Shown here: one piece after another, positions 4,374-62,136 of the stretch
Numbering within the stretch: the first letter of the stretch is position 1
Layout: each line of letters opens with the position of its first letter
Assembly (NCBI GenBank): GCA_050014495.1
Contig: JBEKDF010000008.1
Location: forward strand, 1-64,000
Source of the DNA: Candidatus Bathyarchaeia archaeon
Lineage (GTDB): Archaea; Thermoproteota; Bathyarchaeia; TCS64
DNA: 64,000 nt
Direction: 5' to 3'
Program-made: the position numbers and the translations under genes
The notes under the pieces: model-generated
What the model saw: the letters and a program-made list of their open reading frames with translations, nothing else
What the model was told of the DNA's origin: nothing
Database searches by the model: none

Positions 4374-4490
4374 TGATCGGCGCGCGCACTTTTACTTCGG
4401 TACGCCGGGGGTGGGGTTATCGAGCAGCGCGCGCCACCATATAGTAGACAGCCTGAACCTCAGCTAGATCAACTATAAGATCTCACGGTT

Positions 4491-4524
4491 GAGTATCAGG
4501 TGCAAGTTTGGATAAGGTCTATGG
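4491..4524. repeat. Dispersed intergenic repeat, copy C
   Basis: 29 of 34 aligned columns identical to 243-275. Confidence 0.75.
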
Positions 4525-4734
4525 AAAGAGGGGTCACATAACCAACCTAATATCAAGATCATTGACTTTGCCACGATTCAGAGAAAGCACACCCTCCTTC
4601 TCCTCACCGAGTAAGCCATTCATCTTGAGGGACCTCCTCATCCTACGGAGAGACTTTACCAGCGCGCGACGCTTGTCTATTCTGTAAGTTACACACGCAG
4701 CAATAAGTGAAACTTACGTGTTTATCCAAACGCT

Positions 4735-4974
4735 ATGGGAGAACAGGATCATCATCTTGAGGCTTGGAATGAAATCTTGCCTCACTGGGTACTTGATCCT
4801 AACGTAAAAAGTTTCCTAGAGTCCGAGGGGATCGAGTTGATTATTGTCCTCGACGAGAAATTCCTAAGTGAGACTCCTATTAAACCCCTAATCATTCTCC
4901 GTGGCATGAAGTCATCAAGTGATTGCATCCAAGCCAAGGAAAACATCTTCGATAAGTGGGAGTTACTCGAATAG
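4735..4974 (+). CDS. Small hypothetical protein
   Basis: 79-aa ORF with protein-like composition in an otherwise empty gap. Confidence 0.5.
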   Translation: MGEQDHHLEAWNEILPHWVLDPNVKSFLESEGIELIIVLDEKFLSETPIKPLIILRGMKSSSDCIQAKENIFDKWELLE

Positions 4975-4997
4975 CATGTGCGTGTTGCTTCGTCTAG

Positions 4998-5768
4998 TCA
5001 TGCGCGCGCGCATTCAATTTTGAATAGAGTTTTAGCATTTTTAATGGTGGCCCTCTCAACATCGTCTACGGGTAACCCCTTCAACTCTGCGAGATGCTTG
5101 AGTGTGAATAGTACGTCCGCTGGCTCCGACTGCCTGCTCTGGCTCTTGATCCAGACCGGCGAGTCTGTCTCGACTAGAATACTCTCTAGGGGCGCCTTCA
5201 TCATAGCCGCTCTCAGCTCCGCACTGACCTCGATAGCTGGTGTACATGATACGAGGTAGCCAGCGTCGAGAATACCTTCGAGTATGTCCAAGGGACCACT
5301 ATACCAGTGGAAGACACCCCTACCGGGGCCGTAACGGATCGCGAGGTCTAGGCAATCTCCCCAAGCTCCCCTACTGTGGATTGATACGGGTAGATCTAAT
5401 TCATGAGCGAGTCGTAGCTGACTCACGTAGAACTCTCGTTGTTTCTCCTTCTGTGCGGCATCCTTTCGAACCAGTTTATGCCAGTAGTCGAGTCCGATTT
5501 CACCAACAGCCACGCATTCAGAAAAGTTGGTACGGATTGTGTCAAGTGCCGTTTCTAGGCTTTGATTGAAAAACTCTGTAGGGTGTATACCGAGAGCAGC
5601 ATGGACGTACCCCCTGTATCTCCGGGAGAGCTCCAGCGTGCCCTCGCAGGTCGATATAGAGGCACTAACAGCGACTATGCCTGAAAGCCCCGCCTTCTTC
5701 GCCCTATCGACCACGGCGTCTCCTTCAGGCAGGTCTGCGAGGTGGGCGTGGGTATCTATTGGTGCCAA
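4998..5768 (-). CDS. tatD: TatD family deoxyribonuclease
   Basis: DTHAH, GIHP, GEIGLDY, HSR, HWYSG, ETDSP motifs. Confidence 0.95.
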   Translation of the reverse strand: MAPIDTHAHLADLPEGDAVVDRAKKAGLSGIVAVSASISTCEGTLELSRRYRGYVHAALGIHPTEFFNQSLETALDTIRTNFSECVAVGEIGLDYWHKLVRKDAAQKEKQREFYVSQLRLAHELDLPVSIHSRGAWGDCLDLAIRYGPGRGVFHWYSGPLDILEGILDAGYLVSCTPAIEVSAELRAAMMKAPLESILVETDSPVWIKSQSRQSEPADVLFTLKHLAELKGLPVDDVERATIKNAKTLFKIECARA

Positions 5769-5776
5769 TTTCTCGC

Positions 5777-6532
5777 CTACTCGCCCGACGCCCAGGTTAT
5801 CATCCTACGCCAGAGCTCCGTGTAGCCTTTCCACTCAGCGAATTCCCGAGGGCACCAGTGGGGACCAATGTCGCTCATCCAGGCAACCGCTCTACCTCTC
5901 CCGTGCCCTCCTACGATAAGCAGGGGGTCGGCTTGAACCGTTGCAAGGACCTCCACTCCCTTTTTCACCCTGACCCGGTTGTATCCTAACAGATACGGCC
6001 ACGTCTCCTCGAGACCATTCGTTATCACGTGCTCGGTCTTAACCACCTTTGGCTGGACGCCTTCAGGGCACTCAACACGATCGTCGTAAGGCTCAAGCTC
6101 AACCGGCAGCGCCTCTTCGACGGGGGAGCCATGATACCGCGCTGCACCGTTTATTCCCTGGTAGCTTAGGTAACCACCCGCCATGATTAAGCCGCCACCG
6201 CTCTGGACAAACTCTTCTAATAGACGTAGTCGGTTGGGGGTCCGCTCCCCGTTTACCCACGTCTTAGGATGCAGGAGGAAGGTATCGGCTCCTATGTCGC
6301 TCAAGATTATGACAGAGTAATCCTTGAGCTTCTCACCCTCAAGGGGGAAAACCGCCTGAGTCTCGTGGCCAGGCATGTGTACCCAGTCACACCAGCCATC
6401 CATTGCTCTTCTGAAATATGCCACGCCGGTATCATAGTCACCACTTACGAAGTTGTTGAAGCCCTTGTAGTGAGTCGTCACGCTGACCCAAGACTCTCCA
6501 ACAAGAAGCACCTTGCCAACCAAGCAGCGCAC
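5777..6532 (-). CDS. Glutamine amidotransferase-like protein (GATase1-like/DUF1355)
   Basis: VLLVGESW, ILSDIGADTFLLHP, GGGLIMAGGYLSYQG, SDIGPHWCP. Confidence 0.88.
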   Translation of the reverse strand: MRCLVGKVLLVGESWVSVTTHYKGFNNFVSGDYDTGVAYFRRAMDGWCDWVHMPGHETQAVFPLEGEKLKDYSVIILSDIGADTFLLHPKTWVNGERTPNRLRLLEEFVQSGGGLIMAGGYLSYQGINGAARYHGSPVEEALPVELEPYDDRVECPEGVQPKVVKTEHVITNGLEETWPYLLGYNRVRVKKGVEVLATVQADPLLIVGGHGRGRAVAWMSDIGPHWCPREFAEWKGYTELWRRMITWASGE

Positions 6533-6606
6533 CTAAAATGTAGAATCAACGAGTAGATAAAAAACCGAGGCTTATTGAAGCCCTAAAATCTAGAAACTGT
6601 AGATGA

Positions 6607-6876
6607 TTAGTCCCTGATACCCTCTAGGACGCTGATTGCATTCCAGATCCTCGTCCGACTATACATGGGCATATTCGGATCCTGGCTGATGTCCTCTAGT
6701 AGGGAGATCGCGTTCGCCGCCCTTGCTCCGATACTCGGACCCTGATCCATAAGCATGTCCGACGCTTGCTTTGCGGCCCGGCGGATGTTCCTAGGGGTCG
6801 TGTTGTCGTCAGCGATCATGTTCAGGACACTCTGAGCCTGTTGAAGCTTCTTCGCATATTCCTCTTTACCAGACAT
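6607..6876 (-). CDS. UPF0147 family protein
   Basis: DNTTPRNIRRAA and DPNMPMYSRTRIW; ATG at 6876 preceded by GAGGTG. Confidence 0.92.
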   Translation of the reverse strand: MSGKEEYAKKLQQAQSVLNMIADDNTTPRNIRRAAKQASDMLMDQGPSIGARAANAISLLEDISQDPNMPMYSRTRIWNAISVLEGIRD

Positions 6877-6961
6877 AATCAACACCTCTGCAGGGCCTAC
6901 CGTGGGGGCCTTGAATTGCCTCAATAGAGTCGAGGAGCGGTTAAAAAACCTTCCACTTTAC

Positions 6962-7723
6962 CTATTCGTCATGCTCTAATAGGTAATCGGGTAGGTCTGC
7001 GACGCTGGGAAGAATCACATCAGGCTTGTTAACCTCCCAAGCCCTATCGGGACGTGGACCCGTCGCTACCCCTATGAAGTGACACTTTGCGTTAACGGCG
7101 CAGGTTGAGTCGATGTGATGGTCTCCTACTAGAAAGACTTCGTCCAAACCTAGCCCCATCATTTTAGCGGCGTGTATCATAGCCTCCGCATAAGGCTTGG
7201 GCTGGGGGGTCTCGCCTCGCCCTAGAATTAGCTCAAAATCGTCCGTCATGCCCGTCTTCTCTAGTGCCCTCACAGCGTATTCATGGTGACTCCGAGTCAG
7301 TATAGCTAGCCTGTAGCCCATCGTCTTCAGCTTGTGGATAGCCTCAGATGTACCAGGTATCATCGTCAGTGACTCAACCGCCTCAAGCTCCCCCTGGTCC
7401 ATGAGGTGAGTCATCTCATCGCGCAGCCAGGCTCTCTCAGTCTCGGGCTTACCCTGTTCCTCCCAGTACTTCTCGGCGTGCTCTAGTATGGCGACAGTAG
7501 TCATCTGAGGCGTAAGGATGTCTTTCGGGGCCCCATGCTCCTCCAAGACAGCTATCATGTTCCTCTTCATCTTTGGGAAGTCAACCTCTGAGTTAACCAG
7601 GGTGCCATCAAGGTCGAATACTATACCCTTGTACCTGCCCAAGCCAATCTCCGAACCATACGAGGTAGCCAACTTAACCTTTACCATAACTTGGGAACCC
7701 TTTTCCCCTCTACCTCTTAGCAT
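6962..7723 (-). CDS. HAD family hydrolase (phosphoglycolate phosphatase-like)
   Basis: FDLDGTL, KP, VGDHHID motifs; real start probably downstream of 7723. Confidence 0.9.
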   Translation of the reverse strand: MLRGRGEKGSQVMVKVKLATSYGSEIGLGRYKGIVFDLDGTLVNSEVDFPKMKRNMIAVLEEHGAPKDILTPQMTTVAILEHAEKYWEEQGKPETERAWLRDEMTHLMDQGELEAVESLTMIPGTSEAIHKLKTMGYRLAILTRSHHEYAVRALEKTGMTDDFELILGRGETPQPKPYAEAMIHAAKMMGLGLDEVFLVGDHHIDSTCAVNAKCHFIGVATGPRPDRAWEVNKPDVILPSVADLPDYLLEHDE

Positions 7724-7859
7724 ACTATTGCAAGGCTCTTGAAGGTCTCATGTAAAGAGCACAAATAGGCGAAGGTTATCAACTCAGAGAGGAGCCACAT
7801 GTGCGAGCAAGGAAAAAAGATGATCTGCCTAAAACCTACACGGAATATGTGAGTCCCGA

Positions 7860-8060
7860 TTGATGGTAAGGTGTTCGGAATGCAAATGGTCGAAGGAAAT
7901 CGATCCAGAGACTCGACTCTCACTCTCACACGAGAATAAGGAGATCTTAAATCGGCTGCTTAGGTCTAGCTATCGGATTAATGAGTTTCGGTACTGCCCG
8001 CATGAGGGTTACTTGGTCTCGAACATAGGTAAGACTGCTTGTGATAACTGGGAGGAATAA
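7860..8060 (+). CDS. Small Cys-containing hypothetical protein
   Basis: 66 aa, CxxC plus two further Cys. Confidence 0.5.
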   Translation: MMVRCSECKWSKEIDPETRLSLSHENKEILNRLLRSSYRINEFRYCPHEGYLVSNIGKTACDNWEE

Positions 8061-8176
8061 CTCCCAATTAGGGGAAGAAAACCAATCATGTCAATCTTTA
8101 CAAGTGAAAATAAGATACGATTATGGAAAAGGTAATCATCAGGAGACGATAAACAGTAAGTTCAAGAGTCGGGGTA

Positions 8177-8482: not shown

Positions 8483-8871
8483 ATCCCGGCAAGATGTTAA
8501 CCCTTCATATTCACGATTTAATTATCAGGCAGGACTGTGCACGCTCAACCAGAGAAATAATCAAATGCCAATTTCCATCTAATATCGTGCGCGCGAGTCT
8601 ATTTTGTCATGCGCGCGCATGTAACCAAAAAATTCGGAGAATAAAATGGAAGATTATGGATTTGTTCTATATAGAAGGAGACAACAACAGACAGCTACAA
8701 AGACTGGATAAGAGGAAGATGGAAGAAAAGAAACAATAAAATAAAGTTAGAGTTACTTTTGGTTTGGGAATAAGATTCTGGAGAAGTCGAGACCAGAAAA
8801 TAGTATCTCCACACCTAAAACGAGTTTCAGACCCTTGCAGTACGTCCTCACACTCGTGCGTACGAACGAAA

Positions 8872-9369: not shown

Positions 9370-9684
9370 CAGCTTTAACTCACATGTGAGGCCGATATTA
9401 TACATTCGGAGAATAATGTTCATTCTGAAATACAGAAACTAGTATTTGTCGAAGAGTGACTTGTGTGGTGGAAAAATGGACCCATTTCGGTCTGTGCGGA
9501 TAATCAAAGACGGTCAGAATCAACCAGATCCGCTCACAGCGATCAGTGGCATGCACGCTCGAAGCACACACCCGTTTTAGCTTATGAGACGGTTAAAAAT
9601 GCGCACTCACTCTAAGGAAGGTTGGTTCAATTCAGCGAAATTGAAGAAGGAATATGGGTTCTGTGGAACGAGTGCAGGAAAAAC

Positions 9685-20045: not shown

Positions 20046-20198
20046 ATAACGCCGTATGGATTACCCTATAAGCATTATTTTTCGCGCGTGGCTTCAGTAA
20101 CTCTGAAGGTCGCTGCCAAACACCTGCATCATGGCTCAAAAAGGGTCCAAATGCTCAAAAGCACTTAATCCGCGAGCAGGAGAGAAAAATGCTCCCAT

Positions 20199-22124
20199 TT
20201 ACGCAACTGTATACGTGTCGAGATTCTCGGGGGCGATTCCGTAAACGCCTCTCTGCTTCGAGATGACACGTGAGAGGTTCTCACACTTTGACTCTTCACC
20301 GTGGATTACGAAGACGCGCTTCGGTTGGGGGTGGAGACGTCGGACGTAGTTAACGAGCTGGCGCCAGTCGCTGTGGCCACTGAAGCCCTCAATAGTATAA
20401 TTTTTCATTGCGACGTTAATTATCTCCATTTTACCGTTCTGCCCGAACATCTGAGCGCTGCCCATCCCTGACTGAATGCGCTGCCCCATCGTTCCGGCGA
20501 CCTGGTAGCTTACGAAGCAAAGGGCATTGTTCTCGTCTGGGGCTAGGCGCTTGAAGTAATCGATTACTGGACCGCCTTCCATCATGCCCGCGGTGGCCAT
20601 TATTATCGCTGGACCACCATTAACGATCTCTTCCCTCTTGTCCTGCTGCTTTACAACTGTGAAGTAGTCGCTTTCAAAGGGGTTGATGCCATCCCTGAGT
20701 ATCTGGTCCCTAATTTCAGAGCTAAGGTATTGGGGGTAGGCGGTGTGGATGCCGGTTACCTCGCTGATCATTCCCTCGATGTATACGGGAGCCTCAGTCA
20801 TCTTCCCCTCCTTCATGTATTTGTTGATCACCATCATGATCTCCTGGGCGCGCCCGACGGCGGGCACAGGGATGAGGAGCTTCCCTTTTTGGAGGGTTCT
20901 GTTGGCTATCTCTACAAAGTTTGCCTCGGTCTCCTCGCGGTCAGGTGTAACATTGTCTACGCCACCGTAGGTGCTCTCCATGATGAGAGTCTCTACTCTT
21001 GGGAACTGGATGGAGGCTGGTTGAAGCAGCTGGGTTGGGCCGTACTTGAAGTCGCCTGTGTATACGATGTTGTGTAGACCTTTCCCGATGTGGAGGTGAG
21101 CCTGTGCTGAGCCGAGGATGTGACCCGCGTTATGGAGGGTTAGGCGTACATCGGGGCTTATGTCTGTGACCTCGCCGTAGCTGAGGGGGATTGTCCTCAT
21201 GATGACCTCCCTGACCTCCTCGTTACTGTAGGGTAGGTAGCGCCCCTCCTTTCCGGTGACATCTAGGTAGTCGCTCTGGAGGAGGACCATCAAGCTCGCC
21301 GTCGGCTCACTGCAGTATATTGGACCCTCGTAACCATACTTGTAGAGGTATGGGAGGAAGCCGCAGTGGTCGAGGTGGGCGTGGGTGATCACAACGGCGT
21401 CTAGCTTGCTGATGTCGAACTCTTCCGTATCTATCCTTGGGTAGGCTCCGATGGGGCTAGATGTACCTGGGTTTATGCCACAGTCTAAGAGTATTCGACT
21501 CTCCCTTGTCCTCACTAAGACGGCAGACCTGCCTACCTGTCTGGCTGCGCCTAGGAATGTGACCCTAATGTCACCCGACTGCTGATACATGGGGCGGAAT
21601 ATTGCCTCACCCGTCTCACGTAGGAACCTCTCTCGCTCCTTACTCTTCCCGTAGATGTATCCTCTCACCATCTTTATGGTCATGCTGGGGATCGGGGGAG
21701 ATCTTACAACATTAGGGCTCCACCTAGTTCTTTTGACGATATCCAGCAGGTTCTGCCCGTTCTTTCCTATAGCGACACCTGGTTTCTCTACCTCCAGCGT
21801 CACCTCTCCAAGGCTAGGATCGAAGTTACTCTGGACAAGCCCCGCCTCAGCAAGAATCTCCTTAACTATTCTCTCCGCTTCGAGCTCATTTACGCGGACG
21901 GATGGGTCGCTACGAACCACTATTCGCTTCTTAATTATGCCAGCTATCTCGCCAACGATGTGGCTCTGTTCGACGAGTGTCTCGGGTTTCTGGGTATATA
22001 TAGCAAGTCTCGGACCCTCGAACTCGATCCTTGTTATTCCAACGTCGGCGGGGATCTTCTCGAGGATCGTCTTCCTGATCTCTTCGTAACTTAGTCCTTG
22101 GGGCTTTTGCATCCCTGCATCCAA
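20199..22124 (-). CDS. fttA: Beta-CASP ribonuclease aCPSF1 / transcription termination factor FttA
   Basis: N-terminal KH domains (FEGP), HAHLDH, GHILGSA, FSGHSD; adjacent to psmB as usual in archaea. Confidence 0.96.
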   Translation of the reverse strand: MDAGMQKPQGLSYEEIRKTILEKIPADVGITRIEFEGPRLAIYTQKPETLVEQSHIVGEIAGIIKKRIVVRSDPSVRVNELEAERIVKEILAEAGLVQSNFDPSLGEVTLEVEKPGVAIGKNGQNLLDIVKRTRWSPNVVRSPPIPSMTIKMVRGYIYGKSKERERFLRETGEAIFRPMYQQSGDIRVTFLGAARQVGRSAVLVRTRESRILLDCGINPGTSSPIGAYPRIDTEEFDISKLDAVVITHAHLDHCGFLPYLYKYGYEGPIYCSEPTASLMVLLQSDYLDVTGKEGRYLPYSNEEVREVIMRTIPLSYGEVTDISPDVRLTLHNAGHILGSAQAHLHIGKGLHNIVYTGDFKYGPTQLLQPASIQFPRVETLIMESTYGGVDNVTPDREETEANFVEIANRTLQKGKLLIPVPAVGRAQEIMMVINKYMKEGKMTEAPVYIEGMISEVTGIHTAYPQYLSSEIRDQILRDGINPFESDYFTVVKQQDKREEIVNGGPAIIMATAGMMEGGPVIDYFKRLAPDENNALCFVSYQVAGTMGQRIQSGMGSAQMFGQNGKMEIINVAMKNYTIEGFSGHSDWRQLVNYVRRLHPQPKRVFVIHGEESKCENLSRVISKQRGVYGIAPENLDTYTVA

Positions 22125-27566: not shown

Positions 27567-28838
27567 ATGGATCTCGACACCTTTTTCAGTAACGAGGTCA
27601 AGCCCGCACTCGGTTGTACAGAACCAGGAGCTGTGGCTCTCGCAACCTCCACCGGAGCGAAGTACATCGGGGGTAAACCTGATCGGATAAGCCTCAAGCT
27701 TTCCGCGAACATCTATAAGAACGGTGTCAACGTGGGGGTCCCCAATACTGGCGGCCTCAAGGGGAATAGCCTCGCGGCTGCGCTGGGAGCGATCGCTGGC
27801 GACCCTTCAAAGGGATTACAGTCCCTCGCCAAAGTGAAAACAAATGATATGCGAGAGGCGGAGCGCCTAGTCTCTGCGGGAGCGGTCACAGTCGAAATAG
27901 TAGATGACGTGCCAAACGTATACATCGAGGCTACCTTAAACCAGGGCAACCAAGTGGCAGCGGTTATCATTTCTGAGAGACATGATAATATCGTGGAAAT
28001 CAGGGTAAATGGTGCATCAGTGTTGAGGGTGGAACAAGTTCACTCGTCATCGAGTCCAGACCTCGATTACGAAAAAGAGCTGCTGAGCTACAACATGGAG
28101 AGCCTATGGAGGATTGCAGGGGATCTTACACATGCCCAGGAGCTGCTGATGCTCGAAGGCGCTGATATGAATATGTCTGCCGCTTTGGAAGGTGTGAAAA
28201 CTCCGTGGGGGTGTGGCGTAGGGTATCACTTTGGGCGATTATTCGCCGAGGATGATATACTAGGGAGGGTCAAGACGATGGCTGGGGCTGCTACTGATTT
28301 CAGAATGGGTGGTGGCCCGAGGCCCATCATGAGTAGCTCGGGTAGCGGAAACCACGGCATCACGGCAATCCTCCCAGTTGTTGTGGTATCAAAGAGCCTT
28401 GGAAAAAACGATAGAGAGCTTGCTGAGGCTCTGGCACTCAGCCACATCGTAACCAGGTACATTAAGGCCTACACAGGGATAATCACACCAACTTGCGGCT
28501 GCTCCATAGCTGCTGGCGCTGGCGCCACAGCTGCCATCGTCCGCCTCATGGGGGGTACTCCAAAGCAGGCTGAGGTCGCTGTAGCGAGTCTCATCGCATC
28601 AGTGATGGGGATGGTCTGCGACGGAGGCAAGGGGAGCTGCGCGCTCAAGGTTTCAACTGCCGCCGGAGAGGCTTACACTAGCGCCCTTCTAGCAATCTCC
28701 GGTGGAGGTGTAACCGACACACAGGGATTAATTAAACCAGACCTCAAGAACATCGCAGAAACGCTGGGGATCTTAAACAAAGAGGGATTCAGAAACCTCG
28801 ACACCCTCATCCTAGATGTTATGAGACGACAAAACTGA
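27567..28838 (+). CDS. L-cysteine desulfidase family (YhaM-like, serine dehydratase alpha) protein
   Basis: PALGCTEP, SGSGNHG, CGC, CDGGKGSCALKV. Confidence 0.9.
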   Translation: MDLDTFFSNEVKPALGCTEPGAVALATSTGAKYIGGKPDRISLKLSANIYKNGVNVGVPNTGGLKGNSLAAALGAIAGDPSKGLQSLAKVKTNDMREAERLVSAGAVTVEIVDDVPNVYIEATLNQGNQVAAVIISERHDNIVEIRVNGASVLRVEQVHSSSSPDLDYEKELLSYNMESLWRIAGDLTHAQELLMLEGADMNMSAALEGVKTPWGCGVGYHFGRLFAEDDILGRVKTMAGAATDFRMGGGPRPIMSSSGSGNHGITAILPVVVVSKSLGKNDRELAEALALSHIVTRYIKAYTGIITPTCGCSIAAGAGATAAIVRLMGGTPKQAEVAVASLIASVMGMVCDGGKGSCALKVSTAAGEAYTSALLAISGGGVTDTQGLIKPDLKNIAETLGILNKEGFRNLDTLILDVMRRQN

Positions 28839-31557: not shown

Positions 31558-31619
31558 ATAATTGGTTCATTCTTCGTCTATATTTACCATTCGCACGCGC
31601 GAATAAGCTAGATTAGAAG

Positions 31620-32676: not shown

Positions 32677-32876
32677 TCCATTCAGGCGTGTCCTCTTCTA
32701 TCTTTTAACTTTTTTTCCAAATTTCATCATAATATTGTGACTTTTCAAAGAATTAGTCTTTATTTCTAGAGAAGAAGTGAATGAACTCATTTACACACAC
32801 TTGGGTCAAGCGCTCTCGCGCGCTATGATTGTAAGAGCCCGCGCGCGCCTCGATATGTGGACACGCTGTATGAGGC

Positions 32877-34976
32877 TTAAGAGGGACGAGAAACGGCTAG
32901 GTAGTCCTCGAGGCGGCTCTCCCTGACACCTCGTTCCTTCAGCGTATCTTCAATTAGGAAGGGGCTTAGGAGACTCATCACAGTCCTTCTGGCCACCTCG
33001 ACGTACTTCTTGCGATCGTACATCCCATCAGCGTCTCCTAACATGAAGGAGGGCTTAACTCGGAGGAAGGGGTTACTGCTCTCCGAGTTCACGTAGATGT
33101 AACGGGAATTCCCCTCCTCCTCGGCTCCTAATAGGGCCGCGACGACATGAGCCTGTAGGCTGCGGTATTGGGTTAGCTCCCGTAAGAGTCTCTTGGAGAT
33201 CACTAACTCACTCGCGTCCACCCGACCGCGGCGCAGGTCTTCGAAGGACCTGTTTGCGATGGCGAGGGCCCGTGATAGGCCGCTCCTCAAGACGCCCTCG
33301 GAGTCGTCGGCGTCGAAGAGGGTCACCATGACTCGCTCCTGTAGGCGGTTCATGTAAGGTGGTGTGTCGTGTTTGCGGAGCTCTATCCCGCGATAGAAGA
33401 GGCTGCCATCGGTGAGCTTGCCGTAGTACCTGTTTGAGGCGCCTTGGAGGGGGTCGGTGGTCTTGCCGAGGAGGACGAGGAACCTGAAGTGTTTGTCGAG
33501 TTTGATGGGGAGTCCAGCGGCTTCAGCGATCTCTGATGCGAGCTCCTCGTAGTCAGCCTCTGTGGCGTCTCGTTTCTTGGTATATAGGGCGTCGGTGTTG
33601 CCGTAGACGATCTCGAACCCCCTGGCTAGGGCGATGTTGAGGGCCTTGACGAGGGCTTGCCGGGCCTGCCTATTTATCTCCTGAAAGACCTGGACGTTAG
33701 CGAACCTGTTGGCGTAGCAGCCGCTGTAACCATAGATGACGACTAGCATGAGTTTGAGGCTCGCCTGTCTCTGCTCGCACCAGGTCCACTCTTTGAAGCT
33801 AGGTTGGAGCAGTTTCCTCATGTGTTTGAATCTGAATCGGCGCTCGAGGGTTGGGCCGGTGAATTGGCCCATGAAGCCGGGTCGGGTCTGGTCGACGCCG
33901 TCCTCGGTGACGGTCTCGTAGCTCACGTTGTATCGGCTGATTATGCTGGGAAACATGGATTCGAAGTCGATGCAGCCGACGTTCTCGTGTAGGCCGACCA
34001 GGGGGGTGAAGAGCATGCCTCCCCTGTCGCGCTTCACCATATCCCAGGCGTTCATTGAGGAGACGTAGCCGCCTTTCATCTCGGGGACTAGTACCTTCTG
34101 CCGGTGGGCCTCGTAGCATTGGCGGCTGTCGATGGTTTTCCCCGCCTCCCAGTCACTGCTCACTCCCATGGGAGCGAGGGTAAATAGGGAGCGTTCCTGG
34201 AGACCAGCAAGACCCATGTCAGTCCAGCTGTGGTAGCCAAGGATTATCCGACCGTGTGTGAGCTCATGTTCTCTGCCGAAGCCTAGACTGAGGCCGTGCT
34301 GGGTAGCCTTCTGAATGACCCAACGTATCGAGTTGGTGTCGTCGAGGACTACGACGTCGGGGTCCTCACTCTCGAGTAGATTTTTCAGCTCCGTGAGGAC
34401 GGATTCCTCGGTTCCCCTGAGGCTACTCAGGGGCATTTCGTCGGCGTCGTAGACGTCGACGGGGGTGATCGCTCCGGCGTCTGGGAGTTTTATTAGCATC
34501 GTCTTAAATGGGGGTGGTTCAACCCCATCGTCTTTGAGGGCTCTGATGCTCTTCAGGGTCCCGTTCTGTGTCTCGAACTCGCAGAGACCGGTCGGTGCCA
34601 CACCCCTCTCTATGAGGTACCACTGTATGGGGGATAGGCCGATGTCGAAGACCTCCTTAACTTCGCGGAGGCTCCTCGCATACGCGATGACTTTGTCGAG
34701 GGACTGGGCGGAGTCGACCCTGACCTCCGCTACGGGCTCTAGTCGCTCCATGGAAAGTGAGGCGTATCTCTCGACGGGTTCGGCGGAGTGAACCATCTTA
34801 TGCTCCTCGAGCCGGTAACAGAGGTCCTCGATGGCGAGACCGGGGGTTGGTTGGGCTACGAATCGGGGGCGGTGCCTCTCGGTGAGGTGTAGTGTCTCGC
34901 CTTCGACTGTTTTGAACCAGAGGTGGGCGTCTTTTCCCCGGATGTATGGGTCAAGCAGCCAGCCTCTGTGGGTCAA
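32877..34976 (-). CDS. Family B DNA polymerase, PolB2/Dpo2 group
   Basis: Motif A DFESMFPSII, motif B KLMLVVIYGY, variant motif C YGNTDAL, RGIELRKHDTP; no recognisable exonuclease motifs. Confidence 0.9.
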   Translation of the reverse strand: MTHRGWLLDPYIRGKDAHLWFKTVEGETLHLTERHRPRFVAQPTPGLAIEDLCYRLEEHKMVHSAEPVERYASLSMERLEPVAEVRVDSAQSLDKVIAYARSLREVKEVFDIGLSPIQWYLIERGVAPTGLCEFETQNGTLKSIRALKDDGVEPPPFKTMLIKLPDAGAITPVDVYDADEMPLSSLRGTEESVLTELKNLLESEDPDVVVLDDTNSIRWVIQKATQHGLSLGFGREHELTHGRIILGYHSWTDMGLAGLQERSLFTLAPMGVSSDWEAGKTIDSRQCYEAHRQKVLVPEMKGGYVSSMNAWDMVKRDRGGMLFTPLVGLHENVGCIDFESMFPSIISRYNVSYETVTEDGVDQTRPGFMGQFTGPTLERRFRFKHMRKLLQPSFKEWTWCEQRQASLKLMLVVIYGYSGCYANRFANVQVFQEINRQARQALVKALNIALARGFEIVYGNTDALYTKKRDATEADYEELASEIAEAAGLPIKLDKHFRFLVLLGKTTDPLQGASNRYYGKLTDGSLFYRGIELRKHDTPPYMNRLQERVMVTLFDADDSEGVLRSGLSRALAIANRSFEDLRRGRVDASELVISKRLLRELTQYRSLQAHVVAALLGAEEEGNSRYIYVNSESSNPFLRVKPSFMLGDADGMYDRKKYVEVARRTVMSLLSPFLIEDTLKERGVRESRLEDYLAVSRPS

Positions 34977-36047: not shown

Positions 36048-36184
36048 CGAACTCACCTCGTGATGGGTGGGGGGTACTCGAAGGTAGACGATATGGAGCA
36101 TATCCCTCAGATATGCGTGCGACATGCGCTGTTGGCCTGCGGCAAGGATAGTTAATCCAAGGTTGATTTTACCGTGTGCGCGCA

Positions 36185-40722: not shown

Positions 40723-40734
40723 GGAAGGAGCGCG

Positions 40735-40804
40735 CGACGTGATCACCATTAACAGATCGGATATTCAGAAAATAATTTAATTGTCTCAAATATTCAGGAT
40801 TATC
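40735..40804. repeat. 70-bp direct repeat, right copy
   Basis: Matches 39554-39623; begins inside a GCGCGCG tract. Confidence 0.85.
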
Positions 40805-42915: not shown

Positions 42916-43145
42916 TGCTTGAGTTTCCCCTGTTTGATTTTTGCTTCGCCGTTATTAGCTGATTTGCTAGGGAGTTAACAGTGAATGCGGTATATCGTAT
43001 TAATTATTAGCTACAGAGAAGTCAGGATGAAATTTTACGATCCTACTCGTTGATCTTGGTACTAGTTTTTAATGTGGTCTCCTAGTTGTACACGCGTAGT
43101 AAACCCAAAGGCTTTCTCAAACCTAGAGCTTAATTGTATTATCAT

Positions 43146-44961: not shown

Positions 44962-45066
44962 GATAATCTTTAAGAAAAATGGATATGTTACAATTTTAAA
45001 CCGCGCGAGAGCCAATCGCTAGACCTCAGATGGATATGGTGCACGATCAACTATTTTCTTATATAA

Positions 45067-45456: not shown

Positions 45457-45674
45457 GACTCTCGCCTTAGAACCTAAATTCTAGAATCTCCTTTGTAAGT
45501 GCTCTACGATTAGATTTCCTTTCAATCTATGCACATGCAATCTATGTGGTAGATTTGGATAGCTCGTGCGTTTCTACTTTGAGGTCTGAGGTGGCACAGT
45601 TCCTATAGCCATCATTCGCGCGCGCGTCTATACACACAAACAAAATAACAAAAAGGGCTAATGGGCTGTCGATA

Positions 45675-46340: not shown

Positions 46341-46345
46341 TTTTC

Positions 46346-46684: not shown

Positions 46685-46796
46685 CTAATCCTCACTCCTA
46701 CCTTGTTGTTTTATTACACATTTAACGATTTGAACTTAAAGATTGGTAATTGTTCAATAGAATTTTGAAAACCCTCGAACGCGCGATCATTTAATA

Positions 46797-48125: not shown

Positions 48126-48282
48126 GGGAAAATATTATTCAGTTCAGCTTAAATCACCTGCGAGTGCACGCGGATGCCAGTTTCGAGTCACTCGAGGATG
48201 ACTCTCAAGAGGCTGTGACCCTCGAACAATCAAGGGAGTGTTTGGTTGGGAATGATTGCACGTGCACATGTTTCAGCTGCTG

Positions 48283-52161: not shown

Positions 52162-52300
52162 TGATACTTGAAGACTCGCACCTATAAACTCCTAATTGAA
52201 GCACAGGAGCATTAGCCTTCAGCGTCGAGATCAATGTTACTAATACCTTAAAGTTTGACGAGGGATCCGCGCGTCATCTCATCAAGTGTGTGGATGATTC

Positions 52301-52942: not shown

Positions 52943-52954
52943 TTCATTCCTTCT

Positions 52955-55188: not shown

Positions 55189-55211
55189 GTTATCATCTTA
55201 AACTTCGTGAT

Positions 55212-56978: not shown

Positions 56979-57373
56979 GCGCATGATTTAAAGGCGACGC
57001 ATACGCGCGCGAGCTCTGTGAAGGCAAAGGGAGTCGGGAGGAGCATCCTTTATTCAGTAAGCGTACCGTGGAGGCATATAGTGACACAATCGATTTCAAA
57101 TACAAGAAAGAGTCTTGGACGACCTTCATCATAAAGCTGGGCTCGTGACTCGTAAATCTAAAAAGTGACTATGAATTGGTATAGTAAACGCATAGTTTAC
57201 CAAATTATATTGAGCATGGGGGCCATAGGCCCCATTGTCCTCTGGTTGCTGATGCGGCATCCAGTTGTTTCCTGTGGCCAGCTCTACCAAGCTGGTTGAA
57301 TCAGGTGTTGACTAAATAATATTTAAGGTATATCGATTACCAACTCATAAATCAGATCGAGGAGCTTGCACGA

Positions 57374-58483
57374 CTAAGCTAGGCGATTGTATTTCTTCAA
57401 AGCGGATCGAAGTCGGTCATGTGGAATAGCATACACCTTGTTGCCATTTATCCCTACCATAGTCTCAGCTGCTACTAGCGCGTTCACGATCGCCTCCTCA
57501 GTCGCTTGAACAGTTGCAAGGAAGAGGTCACTCATCAACTCATTGGGGAGCATCCTTACATCCTTGACCTCGGTATCACTGTAGACGCGTGGATTCGACG
57601 TCGAGAATGCGATGAATATGTCACCTGACCCGTTTCCACCCACACCACCGACCCTGGCCACACCCATTGAGGCCCGCCTCGCCAACCGCTTAAGCTGGTG
57701 GGGAAGTAGAGGCGCATCCGTAGCAATCACTACGATTATCGAGCCTTGCTCGTTAGGCGCCTGGGTGATATGTTCCTCGGGCATGAGGTCTGGGATCTCC
57801 TGACCCACGGGTACACCAGTTATCGTTAGGAGCGACCTGAGTCCATAGTTAGCTTGGACCAAAACCCCAACAACATACTCGTGTAAGCCTATAGTTGATA
57901 CTCTCGAAGATGTACCGATTCCGCCCTTAAATTGGTGGCAAATCATTCCAGTGCCACCGCCGACATTTCCCTCCGCAATGAGACCAGTAGACGAGGTCTC
58001 AATCGCTTCAAAGGCGTGCTCCTTCTTCACATGGAAGCCATTGATGTCGTTCAACAGACCATCGTACGTCTCAGCAACGACTGGAAGCGACCACGGATCC
58101 CCCAACGATGAACCCTTCTTTCTCTGCATCCACTCGATCACAGCATCGTGGACGACACCAACGCTGTGAGTGTTGGTAATCATAATTGGCCCGGAGAGGA
58201 ATCCGGACTCATCCACCCAGGTAGTTCCAGTCATCTCCCCGTTCCCGTTTAGGCAGGCCCACCCTGCGAATACAGGGTCATTCGCCTCGCCTCGGTGAAG
58301 AACAGCGGTGACACCGGTCCTCACCATGTTAACGCTAACATTGAGCCCACCATCCCCCTCGATGATGGTTGAGTGCCCGACAGTAACACCCTCCACATCG
58401 GTGATCGCGTTACACCTACCTGTTACTCCCAGGAAGGGAACTCCGAGATCCCTGGCTCTCGGCTTAACCCTTGAAGAACTCAT
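57374..58483 (-). CDS. DmpA-like aminopeptidase (peptidase S58/P1 family)
   Basis: NAITDVEGVTVGH, NGNGEMTG, EGNVGGGTGM, GSIIVVIATDAP, GSGD. Confidence 0.95.
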   Translation of the reverse strand: MSSSRVKPRARDLGVPFLGVTGRCNAITDVEGVTVGHSTIIEGDGGLNVSVNMVRTGVTAVLHRGEANDPVFAGWACLNGNGEMTGTTWVDESGFLSGPIMITNTHSVGVVHDAVIEWMQRKKGSSLGDPWSLPVVAETYDGLLNDINGFHVKKEHAFEAIETSSTGLIAEGNVGGGTGMICHQFKGGIGTSSRVSTIGLHEYVVGVLVQANYGLRSLLTITGVPVGQEIPDLMPEEHITQAPNEQGSIIVVIATDAPLLPHQLKRLARRASMGVARVGGVGGNGSGDIFIAFSTSNPRVYSDTEVKDVRMLPNELMSDLFLATVQATEEAIVNALVAAETMVGINGNKVYAIPHDRLRSALKKYNRLA

Positions 58484-58603
58484 AGAGGAAAAATGAATTC
58501 GACAGAATAAAAAACCTTGAACTGAGTTACAATCGTGCATGATGTTACTCGAACAGCTTAATATCCGAGGGAATATGCTTCAAGATCACATAAGGGAAGA
58601 TGA

Positions 58604-58768
58604 TTGTCCCGAAAGATAACCGCCGTGCCAATCGGTGAAAAATGGTGCAGAAGATGTATCAACTCTAGAAAGCCCTGCCATAAGGCCGAGGGAAATTGGT
58701 GCTACAGATTCGACCCGACAAGTCCTTTGGCTAGAAAGCATCTCAGGGAACGTTCGGGTTTAGAGTGA
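58604..58768 (+). CDS. Putative 54-aa Cys-rich microprotein
   Basis: Hand translation MSRKITAVPIGEKWCRRCINSRKPCHKAEGNWCYRFDP...; below ORF-track cutoff. Confidence 0.45.
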   Translation: MSRKITAVPIGEKWCRRCINSRKPCHKAEGNWCYRFDPTSPLARKHLRERSGLE

Positions 58769-58833
58769 GTAGCGCAACTAATATTCGCGCGTTCAACAGA
58801 GTAATTAGATAAAAAAACAAGTGTGCATTTTAG

Positions 58834-59811
58834 TTGGTGATTGAATTGGTGCTATCACCGATACATTTTGCTCCATCGATCGCTGCTGCCATATTAACCA
58901 TAATCTTGGTCTTCACCAAGCGCGACAGGGGTCACAAGACCCTAGCCTATGGAATGGTGTTCTTCGCAGCGATTGGGTTCGCGGGATTCATTTTCGGTGA
59001 CTGGACCCAACTCCTCGGATTTAGCTTTCACTCGTTACACGCGTGGGTAGGATTACTTACTCTCTCGACCTCTGTGACCGCTTTTCTTCTCAAAACCGTG
59101 CATAGGGGACCTCACTGTCTAATTGGAAGAATTGCTGGAATACTAGCTCTGATCTCGTTGGTTATGGGATTAGTGATTCTGCTAGGTTTAGTACCTGGGA
59201 CTTTGGCTAGCCAATTGACTCTCCAAGTATCAGCCTCAAGCCACCTCCCGGAAGTTGAGGCGCACCAATTCATGAACACGACACTCGTACCCATCTCAAG
59301 CCAGGGTAATAACGCGATAATTGGAACTCAATACATTGATCAAGACAATTACACACTAGTGGTCGATGGCCTAGTTGACAAACAACTCACGCTATCATAC
59401 AACGACTTACTAAACCTCCCAGCCTACTCGGAGGTCGCCTATATGCCATGCGTAGAAGGCTGGGGCTTCAACGCGAAGTGGACCGGCTTCCGAGTCATCG
59501 ACATACTAGACCAAGCAGGGATCTCCATTGCAGGTAACTACGCGGTTTTCTACTGCAAAGACGGTTACTCAACGGGCCTCCCACTCACATACCTACGGGA
59601 CAACCACATCCTTCTCGCCTACGGGCTAAACGACGTCACGCTCCCCGCGGATAGAGGATTCCCGCTTCAACTCGTCGCTGAGAGCAAGTACGGCTACAAA
59701 TGGGCAAAGTGGATCGTCAGAATCGAGGTCGTGAGAGGCGAGTATTTAGGATATTGGGAGACCCGCGGCTATACTGACTCTGCGGATGTGGGAACCTTCC
59801 CCTATGGCTAG
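58834..59811 (+). CDS. Sulfite-oxidase/MsrP-like molybdopterin oxidoreductase with N-terminal membrane domain
   Basis: PCVEGW, WTG, GFPLQLV, YGYKWAKW, GYWE; four TM helices with His residues. Confidence 0.88.
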   Translation: MVIELVLSPIHFAPSIAAAILTIILVFTKRDRGHKTLAYGMVFFAAIGFAGFIFGDWTQLLGFSFHSLHAWVGLLTLSTSVTAFLLKTVHRGPHCLIGRIAGILALISLVMGLVILLGLVPGTLASQLTLQVSASSHLPEVEAHQFMNTTLVPISSQGNNAIIGTQYIDQDNYTLVVDGLVDKQLTLSYNDLLNLPAYSEVAYMPCVEGWGFNAKWTGFRVIDILDQAGISIAGNYAVFYCKDGYSTGLPLTYLRDNHILLAYGLNDVTLPADRGFPLQLVAESKYGYKWAKWIVRIEVVRGEYLGYWETRGYTDSADVGTFPYG

Positions 59812-59961
59812 ATATGACGCAGCGTGCAAGAATCCATCATGCCAAAAAGTGTGCGCGCGACTCCTGCTAACTCACTAGCTAAGAATCTCATCTGTACTAT
59901 TTTGATGTGGAAATGGAGAAAGGGATACTCGTATGGGAGAAAATGTAAGGAGATAAATTGC

Positions 59962-61044
59962 TCAGCTTTGTGGTTCACAGTCCCTATTTAGTGAGCCTGC
60001 AGCGCAATGAACCGAGCCACTGTTCCTCGGACCAACTAGGCTCGGTATATCGACCTCAACAACCTCCACGCCCATACTCTCAAGCCACTTAGTCGCCTTT
60101 GGCTCACCGACTGGGACAAGGATCTTCATCGGCTCGAGAACGACCCCCGTCTCAGGCCCAACTGGCATACCTTGATCCACCCTGCAGAGATCATCGGGTG
60201 GAACCACGAACCTCCAATCCATCTCGCTTCTGAGCCAATCAAGCGTGTACTTGTCCAGCCACTTCGGATTAGCAACCGAAGTGTGCCTGTCGATCATGCA
60301 ATAATGTGTAAGCTGTGGTCGGGGACCATACCCTGGGAGGATCCTCACATCCACCTCAGGGTCCTGCATGTGGATGATTCGCTTGAGTTGTTCATGGCCC
60401 CAATCATTCGCCCTCCAGACCCCGGGTTTCCTGGTGTTTGCCCTCGGGTAGTGAACCGCGGCGAAGAGGTGCTTCTCGTCAAGCCACCCGATGTTTCCAC
60501 CCTCAGCCATCCCCCTGCCCGTGATCATGCCAGTGACTGGACACCCAACACTTGCTAGGGTCTGATAGGTCGGGAGCTCCTCACCCCTCCTAATGTTGTC
60601 GTACATCCTCAGTATTATTTGGCCGTAGACCGCTGGGTGGCAGACATCGTCGGTATATATCGCTTTGACCTGGTAGGGTGGATCATTAGGGTCAGGCTTC
60701 CTCTCAACGACCTCGACCCCTTCATCCCTGTACACCTTCACGAGCCTCTCATAATCCCTTGTCAGTTCGGTGAGGTCCTCTGGCTTGTAGCTCATCCTCC
60801 AACTTGAGAGACTTGAGTCGTGTGGTGCCCACGGCGTGGGTTTCCCAACGCTCAGAAACTCCTTCCCCGGTCTATGCAGAAGCACAGTGCGAAGCTTCCC
60901 AATAGTCGTGTTCGCCTTCCACTTCCTCCCCCAGACCCTTGGCATCTCCTCCTCGAATTCTGAGAGTATCTGCGGGTGATACTTCATGTATTGCTCATGT
61001 AGCGTCATACCAGTTTTTTCCCTGAATTCATCTATCTCATCCAT
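59962..61044 (-). CDS. Amidinotransferase / arginine deiminase / DDAH family protein
   Basis: LRTVLLHRPG, RRGEE, EGGN, GSVHC. Confidence 0.85.
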   Translation of the reverse strand: MDEIDEFREKTGMTLHEQYMKYHPQILSEFEEEMPRVWGRKWKANTTIGKLRTVLLHRPGKEFLSVGKPTPWAPHDSSLSSWRMSYKPEDLTELTRDYERLVKVYRDEGVEVVERKPDPNDPPYQVKAIYTDDVCHPAVYGQIILRMYDNIRRGEELPTYQTLASVGCPVTGMITGRGMAEGGNIGWLDEKHLFAAVHYPRANTRKPGVWRANDWGHEQLKRIIHMQDPEVDVRILPGYGPRPQLTHYCMIDRHTSVANPKWLDKYTLDWLRSEMDWRFVVPPDDLCRVDQGMPVGPETGVVLEPMKILVPVGEPKATKWLESMGVEVVEVDIPSLVGPRNSGSVHCAAGSLNRDCEPQS

Positions 61045-61218
61045 GAATTAGACCAAATAAACAGGTGTTAGTTAGATTATAAATTACCTGAGTCACAGCG
61101 TGATATTCCCGAAAAACTATGACATGATTTAGAAAAGGATACAAGCCAAAGGGGACAGAGTACCAATTTCACTGTGAGAAAACATATCTGGACTTGAAAA
61201 CAATAAAGTGGGATCACC

Positions 61219-62034
61219 ATGCCCTGGGTCGACTCGAACGGAGCGAATATCTGGTATAAAGTAAAGGGAAAAGGGACGCCACTCCTTCTCTGCAACGGTT
61301 GGGGAGGTAGCAGTGACAGTTGGAGCTCCGACATGGTCAGTCTCCTCGCAGAAAAGCATATGGTGGTGTTATTAGACAACCGAGGCACTGGGAGAAGTGA
61401 CAAGCCGAATAATCCCTACACCATGGAGATTATGGTAGAGGACTCTAACCAAGTGCTAACCAAGCTGAACTTGGGACTCGCTCACGTGCTCGGCTTCAGC
61501 ATGGGTGGCATGATCGCTCAGGCACTCGCCATATACCACCCCGAAAGCGTCAGAAGCCTAATCCTATGTGCTACGAGCCCCGGCGCTGCAAACAGTATAC
61601 CCATCACACGAGAGGCGTCACATGAACTCGCCAGAGTGAGTGACGAGAGGATACCCAAGCACGACCAAGTTAAAGCCCTCATTTACCTCCTATACCCCAG
61701 AGAATACATCGAGCCACGCCTAGAGGAGCTGATCAATGAGGAGAGCTACGATACCAACCCTACGCCGGTGTATGCGCTAAAAAGCCAGAGCGCTGCGACA
61801 GCCACTTTTGACTCCTACGACAGGCTTCAAGAGTTAAAGATCCCTGCCCTCATTCTAACAGGGGGCAACGACCGACTCATCCCACCGGATAATAGCCGAC
61901 TCCTCGCTGAGAGGATCCCCGGAGGTGAGCTTCATATCCTTCCGGGCCTCGGACACGGCTTCCTTAAGCAGGCGACCGCCCAAGTTGTGGATCTAATACT
62001 CGAATTCACATCGAGAGTTGACAAACAGCAGTAA
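61219..62034 (+). CDS. Alpha/beta hydrolase
   Basis: DNRGTGRS, GFSMGG, D and GHG triad positions. Confidence 0.93.
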   Translation: MPWVDSNGANIWYKVKGKGTPLLLCNGWGGSSDSWSSDMVSLLAEKHMVVLLDNRGTGRSDKPNNPYTMEIMVEDSNQVLTKLNLGLAHVLGFSMGGMIAQALAIYHPESVRSLILCATSPGAANSIPITREASHELARVSDERIPKHDQVKALIYLLYPREYIEPRLEELINEESYDTNPTPVYALKSQSAATATFDSYDRLQELKIPALILTGGNDRLIPPDNSRLLAERIPGGELHILPGLGHGFLKQATAQVVDLILEFTSRVDKQQ

Positions 62035-62136
62035 TTAACAACAGTACCCACACGCGCGCCGTACGCGTTGCAAGCTCGCCTTGTTTAGAAGATACTAAAT
62101 ATACCTCTTTTTAGGCACCGAGACAATGATTACACG

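Follow-up and report, generated by a model that had tools for sequence, protein, structure and literature searches.

Alternating CG tracts are scars of joined DNA in an archaeal genome, likely written from an RNA template by a primase-type enzyme

The short alternating CG tracts scattered through the 64,000-nt window (the whole stretch of DNA analysed here, carried by genome G000; other G codes denote relatives and C codes contigs of G000) are join scars: new sequence at places where DNA was deleted and rejoined, not conserved signals. We consider it likely that they were written by a primase-type enzyme copying the short template of a predicted pseudoknot RNA onto broken ends.

An earlier sequence-only reading had listed 20 runs in the window, and inspection of the letters confirmed all 20 starts as alternating CG runs of 6–10 nt. 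It had placed them in AT-rich gaps or at a stop codon, with few in coding DNA; by our own gene calls, the 10,710 non-coding bases of the window hold 19 runs and the 53,290 coding bases hold six (at 5002, 8217, 20848, 23837, 28639 and 35298). The first of these is the run 5002..5011 at the end of tatD, as had been stated, and those at 20848, 23837 and 28639 are ordinary codons at which relatives are identical or differ by one change. Three degenerate tracts had been described as runs of one type; all three exist, but their sequences differ, with TGCACGTGCACATGT at 48257, TGTACACGCGTA at 43087 and GCATGCACGC at 9549. The tracts of the window, none of them assigned to a strand, are listed below, and where no other ground is named the assignment is read from the letters themselves.

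4380..4387, (GC)4 tract, probable join scar, without a paralog for a test
4427..4434, (GC)4 scar; to its right lies a gene fragment whose family recurs elsewhere in the genome (74.6% over 118 nt to C66), the homology stops at the run, and only GC is common to the parent
4662..4668, 7-nt CG tract, probable scar
5002..5011, (GC)5 scar replacing the final tatD codons; the G002 orthologue, itself without a run, aligns until 8 nt before it
8589..8595, 7-nt CG tract, probable scar
8611..8618, (GC)4 tract flanked on each side by AT, which is the leader expected from the G000 RNA template
9549..9558, degenerate purine-pyrimidine tract, probably a scar decayed by transitions
20083..20088, (CG)3 tract bordering the core block
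31596..31601, (CG)3 inside CGCACGCGCG, probably a decayed 10-nt scar
32817..32823, 7-nt CG tract, probable scar
32840..32848, 9-nt CG tract, probable scar
36178..36183, (GC)3 tract inside a longer alternating run
40730..40736, 7-nt scar; to its right, homology to a paralogous stretch (C8:39556; 81.5% over 65 nt) extends as far as the run
43087..43098, degenerate tract, probably a decayed scar
45002..45007, (CG)3 tract
45617..45626, (CG)5 tract of the capped length of 10 nt, probable scar
46780..46785, (CG)3 tract
48257..48271, degenerate alternating tract, probably a decayed scar
52268..52273, (CG)3 tract
57004..57011, (CG)4 tract, probable scar
58786..58791, (CG)3 tract; G012 homology stops 19 nt short of it
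59853..59859, 7-nt CG tract, probable scar
62053..62059, 7-nt CG tract, probable scar

The enrichment suggested by the sequence-only reading holds genome-wide, where GCGCGCGC lies 17.6-fold above an order-2 Markov model. Intergenic runs of at least 6 nt number 756, against 61–85 in order-0 and order-1 simulations, and those of at least 8 nt number 372, against about 4 expected (0–6); order-2 and order-3 models, whose training data include the signal itself, give 15–27 and 76–109 runs of at least 8 nt. Run length is sharply capped at 10 nt, a property the earlier reading had not mentioned: 95 intergenic runs have 10 nt and four have 11 nt, and alternating dinucleotides other than CG show no comparable plateau. 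The tract signature occurs in 435 of the 1,665 intergenic gaps of 60–600 nt, about a quarter. Across the class the tracts are patchy, W(GC)5W being present in 59 of 201 genomes; comparisons of raw GCGCGCGC counts within the genus are confounded by base composition, with GC contents of 31–63% in the loci fetched.

The proposal that tracts are commoner beside accessory genes was borne out, in that their density in gaps rises genome-wide as gene sharing with G103 falls. Gaps between genes that are neighbours in G103 as well contain no runs (17 gaps, 3.4 kb), and the density, in runs per kb, is 0.92 for gaps flanked by two shared genes that are not neighbours there, 1.35 for gaps with one shared gene and 1.82 for gaps with none. 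The core block at 20.2–27.5 kb has no intergenic run, as had been noted, but this absence is uninformative by itself because the gaps of the block sum to less than 300 nt.

Evidence for joining comes from paralogs. Homology to a paralog breaks off at the run on 143 of 169 testable sides, compared with 50 of 187 shifted controls, and for runs of at least 9 nt on all 60 testable sides (control 13 of 61), which upholds the view that the tracts mark junctions. At the 12 junctions for which both parents are known, 6–9 letters come from neither parent in nine cases, and in the other three the run was already in one parent. Native overlap at the breakpoints is 0–2 nt on 127 of the 143 sides. Within genes, runs seal deletions of 455, 317 and 167 bp and two more of 40 codons, and other runs occur mid-sequence in genes and transposons that are broken and whose intact parent is tract-free at the same point. 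The single-contig genome G103 has scars of the same kind (42 of 72 sides, control 15 of 79).

These observations bear on the reading of the tracts as selected Z-DNA or protein-bound boundary signals at the ends of transcription units or cassettes, as first put forward from the sequence. Alternating CG is a classic Z-DNA former that is usually under-represented in prokaryotes, according to one source (PMC4060949), and runs are in mild excess 10–30 nt 3′ of stop codons and in convergent gaps. They are lacking within 50 nt upstream of start codons, and both this lack and the excess probably reflect places that tolerate deletions. A boundary signal does not account for tracts within disrupted genes and transposons at sites that are tract-free in the parent, nor for their absence from all 17 gaps with conserved gene order. 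The runs have no periodic or preferred spacing and no flanking consensus past two bases. A Z-alpha search gave no match, but it gave none in any control genome either and is uninformative. The decay of the runs, mainly by transitions, speaks against a conserved boundary element, and tract-free parents at the breakpoints speak against a pre-existing signal that directs insertion. We regard the boundary reading as very improbable.

Chimeric joins introduced by assembly or library construction could in principle place tracts at junctions, and 43 runs do sit 100–150 nt from contig ends; those runs, however, represent insertions of elements that interrupt the assembly. A metagenome contig, which may stem from the same sample, is identical to C33 throughout 14,963 bases that hold 22 runs, contigs from other sequencing runs span the region without joints, and the tracts include old, mutated forms. 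This explanation is hardly credible.

A third reading derives the tracts from IS5/IS1182-like elements as footprints of excision or of adjacent deletions. Insertion sequences of two types, IS5/IS1182-like and IS110, do land in the scars. In G000, 63 IS5/IS1182-like ends adjoin CG runs, all 30 two-ended copies have GCGC on both sides, the flanking runs of 5–10 nt resemble free runs, and one copy lies at an in-gene deletion junction. The elements have terminal inverted repeats and a target duplication: 4-bp GCGC fits 30 of 30 pairs, and a fixed duplication of 6 or 8 bp, which fits just 22 and 6 pairs, was rejected. However, the end motif stands beside only 51 of 827 intergenic runs (59 with up to four mismatches), and the parents have no target at the breakpoints. 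Tract-rich G103, G102, G128 and G139 lack a match to the transposase profile, and G103 also lacks DDE_Tnp_1; conversely, G160, G204, G191 and G159 carry the transposase, yet have no 10-nt tracts. Scars without such a transposase in G103 largely refute an origin as footprints, which we judge very improbable.

The landing transposase scores below the curated NCBIfam cut-offs (IS1182, 74–99 bits against 270; IS5_4, 44–73 against 140) in a scan that covered a 280-aa part of the 330–350-codon frame, and Pfam DDE_Tnp_1 was matched in three of four proteins. The IS110 transposase matches NF033542 at 270 bits (cut-off 140, G012 copy). Comparisons of empty and filled sites in sequencing reads gave no joint across an element and revealed no unoccupied site, and the pair C76/C32 has one flank only in common. 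The element ends may resemble the ISH1 subgroup.

For the writing of the scars, the preferred mechanism involves (i) a primase-type enzyme that would pair the 3′ end of a break to a short template carried by the predicted pseudoknot RNA and (ii) the addition of a self-complementary CG tail to that end; since the tail is self-complementary, any two tailed ends would stick and could then be sealed. The template product would be ATGCGC in G000 and TAGCGC in other lineages. As all four letters occur in the template, every broken end could start in register with it, and this would account for the lineage-specific leaders. With just four alternating letters in the G000 template, scars of 8–10 nt would take either a single realignment or the joining of two tails that barely overlap. 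The scars would later have been adopted as landing sites by IS5/IS1182-like and IS110 elements. We infer that one paired base may suffice to prime, that two CG tails would anneal, and that the writer is probably the solo 268-aa enzyme described below rather than PriS.

The RNA element, predicted from sequence and presumably transcribed and folded as drawn, is pseudoknot-like with a short CG template and was found in G000, outside the window, and in relatives. It lies 3′ of the enzyme gene, or overlaps its 3′ end, in G116, G108, G150, G490 and four f42 genomes, and follows radA in f42. Its two crossing stems vary in sequence by lineage; each pairs with its own partner at 5–7 of 7 positions, and cross-lineage pairings reach the full 7 of 7 in 5 of 68 and 0 of 68 cases. 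None of 100 shuffles matched the stem score in seven of 11 copies, two others were matched by 5–7 of 100, and two G000 copies scored 0 under the fixed geometry. Nested-folding z-scores were −1.6, −1.2 and +0.3, and the pair count on a MAFFT alignment was only 57.5%, a low value because the subgroups are out of register there. A model trained without G000 recovered G000 copies at ten places, seven with the template GCGC-AT and two of these seven 2.4–2.8 kb from the intact enzyme gene. G000 copies include C21:35680-35773 and C40:2508-2600, and the element has a TGA...GRTGA motif. The G103 copy is recognisable only in its 3′ half. Rfam gave no match up to E 1 in three loci with element copies, and the window holds neither a copy nor an Rfam match. 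Comparison of run flanks between G000 and G103 in search of an RNA yielded no separated match; structure descriptors missed the G000 copies or did not single them out, and returned the G103 copy only as part of the background. A palindrome at C51:11203, common to G006, was rejected as an element; it looks like shared flanking DNA.

We compared the leader predicted from each template with the leaders of the scars, counted as TA-C, AT-G, TA-G and AT-C. The predicted leader is the commonest in seven of nine genomes with a readable CG template, and the agreeing genomes form three related groups. AT-G is predicted for G000 (60/186/51/60) and G016 (43/106/42/85); TA-G is predicted for G103 (32/26/388/31), G128 (10/17/225/12), G434 (13/7/197/20), G462 (18/4/154/17) and G405 (21/14/256/18), a match that is partly circular because the template in these genomes resembles a scar. 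TA-C, predicted for G116, is raised there at 88 but second to TA-G at 183, and in G108 the same prediction is missed, TA-G leading by 247 to 30. The template loops of G490 and G150 are not alternating CG. At junctions, the first base added after a native T is G in 8 of 11 cases in G000 and A in 7 of 7 in G103, as the respective templates predict (Fisher 2.5e-4 for T-to-A). Two results count against the template: T comes after a native A at only 6 of 18 G000 junctions, which is not significant, and the T before G is non-native equally often after A and after other bases (5 of 12 each).

The solo primase-fold enzyme of G000 (268 aa, C53:7058-7864) is encoded outside the window. It matches Pfam DNA_primase_S above the cut-off; D99, D101, H154 and D205, which correspond to the DxD, His and third Asp of the PriS-like superfamily, are invariant over 118 homologs; and its predicted structure has a PriS fold (pLDDT 92.7; Foldseek top matches PriS, E 7.5e-13). 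On these sequence and model grounds we place it in the archaeo-eukaryotic primase (PriS-like) superfamily. Three genomes of another class, chosen solely because they carry this enzyme, have W(GC)4W counts of 98, 41 and 84, against 7, 3 and 3 in the other register, and G410, which is without the enzyme, has 0. Against its role, G113 and G159 carry it and have no 10-nt tracts. It was not found in tract-rich G103, where the whole genome was covered and PriS was the only primase-family gene, nor in G102 or G128. Viral contigs yielded no relative of the enzyme, and none lay in the vicinity of 50 pattern matches. A 439-aa primase-like gene at C20 was rejected as writer, scoring high in five of 201 class genomes and missing from most tract-rich ones. 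Across five genomes, none of Ku, PolB count and RVT_1 tracks the tracts; RVT_1 reverse transcriptase was found in none of the five, G000 and G103 included, and the control was matched in three of 14.

That G103 is scarred with PriS as its only primase-family gene fits an alternative in which PriS/PriL or another polymerase tails breaks without an RNA template, adding alternating C and G intrinsically or by slippage, and the pseudoknot is unrelated; so does the disagreement of template and leader in G108. Saccharolobus PriSL is reported to perform terminal transfer, to anneal ends with 2–4 GC pairs and to favour insertions forming CC, GGC, CGG or CCG (PMC12019639). The insertions reported there, however, are mostly 1–2 bp, compared with 6–9 here; PriS is universal, whereas the tracts are patchy; and the first added base varies by lineage in step with the template. 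We judge untemplated tailing unlikely.

If the RNA template is real, the system would amount to RNA-templated DNA synthesis by a primase-fold enzyme with two parts, a 268-aa protein and a 95-nt RNA, and to an undescribed way of gluing broken DNA; full-text searches, which took in few subscription papers, returned no description of such synthesis. We are evenly balanced on the wider proposition that archaea have a mobile telomerase-like ribonucleoprotein on a primase fold, whose own pseudoknot RNA and four-letter-complete, lineage-swappable template would give any broken end a universal sticky tip for homology-free joining, with hundreds of joins per genome since adopted by transposons as targets. 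Ku is rare among archaea, and how breaks are rejoined in Ku-less archaea is described as an open question (PMC12019639). Here joins are marked by a signature that can be counted, so sequence by itself is enough to map deletions and captures.

The proposed system would resemble telomerase (TERT and TR) and the DRT10 RT-ncRNA (10.1101/2025.10.16.682844) in having a short template in a structured RNA, a product that follows the template, a boundary set by RNA structure and possible realignment for repeat addition. Both use a reverse transcriptase to make a long terminal or protein-primed repeat, whereas neither G000 nor G103 yielded an RVT_1 match, the putative writer is of primase fold, and the product is a self-complementary patch of 6–10 nt at internal joins. 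The proposed mechanism would share with end joining by Saccharolobus islandicus PriSL a primase-fold enzyme acting at double-strand breaks, terminal transfer and annealing by 2–4 GC pairs, but the latter relies on the replicative primase and native microhomology with mostly 1–2-bp indels (PMC12019639); the G000 scars have a fixed new patch of 6–9 nt with native overlap of mostly 0–2 nt, and a separate solo enzyme and RNA element are implicated. In Ku-LigD end joining of Methanocella and mycobacteria a primase-polymerase likewise modifies ends before ligation, and the available description gives no fixed filler sequence (PMC12019639). G000 has a Ku-LigD-type cluster (C3:64206-67463), but the tract-poor genomes G120 and G168 have Ku too, and no copy of it was found in the tract-rich genomes G103 and G102. 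TdT and Pol theta place non-templated, sequence-variable fillers or N-nucleotides at joins, whereas the scars here have a single alternating sequence, preceded by two leader letters that depend on the lineage. HIP1 and REP palindromes are short, highly over-represented genome-wide and targets of insertion sequences; the CG tracts differ from them in having no fixed flanks, in being nearly absent from intact coding DNA and in being born at breakpoints.

All 20 positions at which the sequence-only reading had placed alternating CG runs (6-10 nt) were verified in the window, positions 1-64000 of contig C8, which contains 19 runs in 10.7 kb of non-coding DNA versus 6 in the 53.3 kb that is coding. 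Across the whole source genome (G000; archaeal, 3.1 Mb, 92 contigs, 3,117 genes called by our own hexamer model with approximate start positions), no other 8-mer is as over-represented as GCGCGCGC (17.6-fold relative to an order 2 model). Intergenic runs in this genome, whose DNA occurs mainly in sequencing runs of peat metagenomes, number 267, 152, 180, 127 and 95 at lengths of 6, 7, 8, 9 and 10 nt, followed by 4 of 11 nt and 3 longer ones. Within the leader, the two bases before a run, T precedes G in ~60%; outside it, no flanking consensus was found around the runs of G000. The main changes in near-perfect run copies are G-to-A and C-to-T. The proposal that tracts are commoner beside accessory genes was borne out, their density being 0 in 17 conserved-order gaps and reaching 1.82 per kb where neither flanking gene is shared. 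A serine dehydratase-like gene (window 27567-28838), absent at the same place in genomes G002 and G012, has no CG run at either border, and hence some accessory borders have no tract.

Comparison of flanks with their paralogs in G000 reveals runs at breakpoints. A run stands in for the lost DNA at a 455-bp deletion within a transposase gene and at deletions of 317 and 167 bp, and two further deletions of 40 codons carry one. Protein homology of flanking gene fragments stops ≤15 nt from a run in 56 instances versus 12 for shifted controls. For the DNA-level test, a paralog reached the flank end on 169 of 2,192 run sides; homology stops at the run on 143 of these 169 testable sides versus 50 of 187 controls, and among runs of ≥9 nt it does so on 60 of 60. 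Within the window, breakpoints could be assessed at runs 4427, 5002 and 40730. The number of run letters common to the parent is 0 on 66 sides, 1 on 43 and 2 on 18. Of 12 cases with both parents identified, 9 have 6-9 letters that come from neither, and in the other 3 one parent already contains the run. In a strain locus 95% identical to contig C33, divergence begins exactly at a tract, on one side of the common gene. We consider it very highly probable that the tracts are newly written scars at DNA joins. Runs of 18 nt (G000, C7:64936) and 16 nt (C7:90639), well past the length cap, may each represent a pair of scars, or of element flanks, fused at their ends.

Insertion sequences were considered as makers of the tracts. 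In G000, 43 runs at a distance of 100-150 nt from contig ends adjoin repeated inverted ends. These mark elements about 1.1-1.4 kb in length, along with shorter derivatives. Their DDE_Tnp_1 transposase resembles the IS5 and IS1182 models, below the cut-off of both. Among named records, close relatives of one G000 transposase are mainly in Candidatus Bathyarchaeota. A CG run adjoins 63 element ends in G000. A 4-bp GCGC duplication is compatible with all 30 two-ended copies examined in G000 and relatives, and a 6-bp duplication with 22; with a fixed 4-bp duplication, inferred targets exceed 10 nt in 8 of the 30, so that either duplication length varies or long runs are preferred. Non-autonomous derivatives of 464 bp and 418 bp lie at C79:7080-7543 and C34:18636-19053. 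In contigs C17 and C48 and in genome G012, an IS110 element sits precisely between a tract and the end of an IS5/IS1182-like element:
G000, C17:57500-58774: IS110 insertion between CG tract and IS5/IS1182-like end
G000, C48:6000-7090: IS110 insertion, same position
Locus L096: IS110 insertion, same position
The non-coding leader of the IS110 element contains GCGCGCG, which we infer to be a candidate guide. The end motif adjoins only 51 of the 827 intergenic runs, and the distribution of the elements across genomes does not track tracts; these elements are users of the tracts, not their makers. A 23-nt repeat family lies beside small paralogous genes at no fewer than 143 places on 46 contigs of G000.

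W(GC)5W, a run of fixed register with A/T on both sides, has a patchy distribution over 59 of 201 class genomes, and its register and flanks vary from lineage to lineage. The single-contig relative G103 (39% GC over its initial 400 kb), examined over its entire genome, has 89 such sites, the same run-length spectrum as G000 with a softer cap, and breakpoints on 42 of 72 testable sides versus 15 of 79 controls; the transposase profile, DDE_Tnp_1, Ku and RVT_1 gave no match in it. The leader in G103 is TA (A 79%, T 55%). The first new base after a native T is A in 7 of 7 G103 junctions and G in 8 of 11 G000 junctions, and the A-to-T rule, T added after a native A, is weak in G000 (6 of 18 junctions). 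Ku presence does not track tracts across five genomes, nor does the number of PolB genes. One G000 cluster (C3:64206-67463, locus L058) combines a ligase with a phosphoesterase-like end, Ku and a LigD-type polymerase, and the window has a third family-B DNA polymerase gene at 32877-34976 (699 aa, neighbours unannotated). GC content ranges from 31% to 63% among orthologous loci L038-L055 of one genus.

G000 has four primase-family genes. The solo primase-fold enzyme is encoded as follows:
G000, C53:7058-7864: solo enzyme gene, 268 aa, near a weak integrase match
The enzyme has a predicted PriS fold with intact catalytic residues and 314 homologs in the protein collection, many of them fragmentary. 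Its subfamily is rare, with members in 11 of the 401 class genomes when E is limited to 1e-20, and a phylum search also located it in another class, 3' of a gene that we take, from its translated sequence, to be radA. Three genomes of that class chosen only for the solo enzyme gene, all of one genus, are tract-rich, with 98, 41 and 84 W(GC)4W sites versus 7, 3 and 3 in the other register; genome G490 has 8 versus 23. Searches of G103, G102 and G128 did not detect the solo enzyme; there, scars may have outlived a mobile gene, or PriS may work with the RNA described below. A 439-aa primase-like gene (G000, C20:26047-27366) is closely related to genes in just four further genomes of the genus sample, plus one in another class.

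A conserved stretch of ~95 nt at the 3' end of the solo enzyme gene is predicted to form a pseudoknot-like RNA element composed of stem 1, a TGA-hairpin-GRTGA motif resembling a kink-turn, a short CG template and then A's, and stem 2 crossing stem 1. Stems were placed by pairing-maximising scripts; full pairing is rare between strands of different lineages, and for 7 of the 11 copies the score was reached by 0 of 100 shuffles. Folding is poor in some G000 copies, and a tool-based pair count was unsuccessful owing to a misregistered alignment. A sequence model built without G000 recovered G000 copies at C21, C56 and C40 and found others in G016, G128 and G110; the G128 copy as query led to G103, where a copy of the 3' half was recovered (E 1e-10). 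G000 has copies at ten places, three of them partial, with the template GCGC-AT in seven, one altered letter in one and none in two fragments. No Rfam family matched in three loci that contain copies of the element, and no copy lies in the window. In G000 no copy immediately follows the intact solo enzyme gene; the closest ones are 2.4 and 2.8 kb away. Copies at C56:4812, C40:2508, C53:10219 and C53:10612, in islands that look mobile, start where small upstream genes end, and in the first three the TGA of the element is also the upstream stop codon.

In the proposed mechanism, a primase-type enzyme would copy the tract letters from this small knotted RNA. Counting four leaders in 29 genomes, we found the template-predicted leader to be the commonest in G000, G016, G103, G128, G434, G462 and G405, seven agreements that represent three related groups. 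The predicted leader is second in G116 (88 versus 183) and is missed in G108 (30 versus 247); templates are altered in G483 and G110, and loops are non-alternating in G150 and G490. Also counting against the mechanism are the failure to find the solo enzyme in G103, G102 and G128, the distance between gene and element in G000, the weak A-to-T rule there and the poor folding of some G000 copies. Judged from sequence comparison, copying of the tracts from the predicted element by a primase-type enzyme appears fairly likely.

Alternating CG is commonly suppressed in prokaryotes (PMC4060949), and the per-genome tables accompanying that work might include comparable excesses. No description of such scars, or of the solo enzyme-RNA pair, was found in the full-text literature searched, and as far as this search extends both are absent from print. 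The present analysis contributes independently made counts, G103 as a control covering an entire genome, a blind prediction examined in another class and a table of leaders that includes the misses. The proposed joining resembles PriSL end joining in Saccharolobus (PMC12019639), from which its fixed 6-9-nt patch sets it apart. The proposed writing of scars would work like telomerase or DRT10, an RT-ncRNA system (bioRxiv 10.1101/2025.10.16.682844); the scar system would stand outside that group because no reverse transcriptase was found in G000 or G103 (RVT_1).
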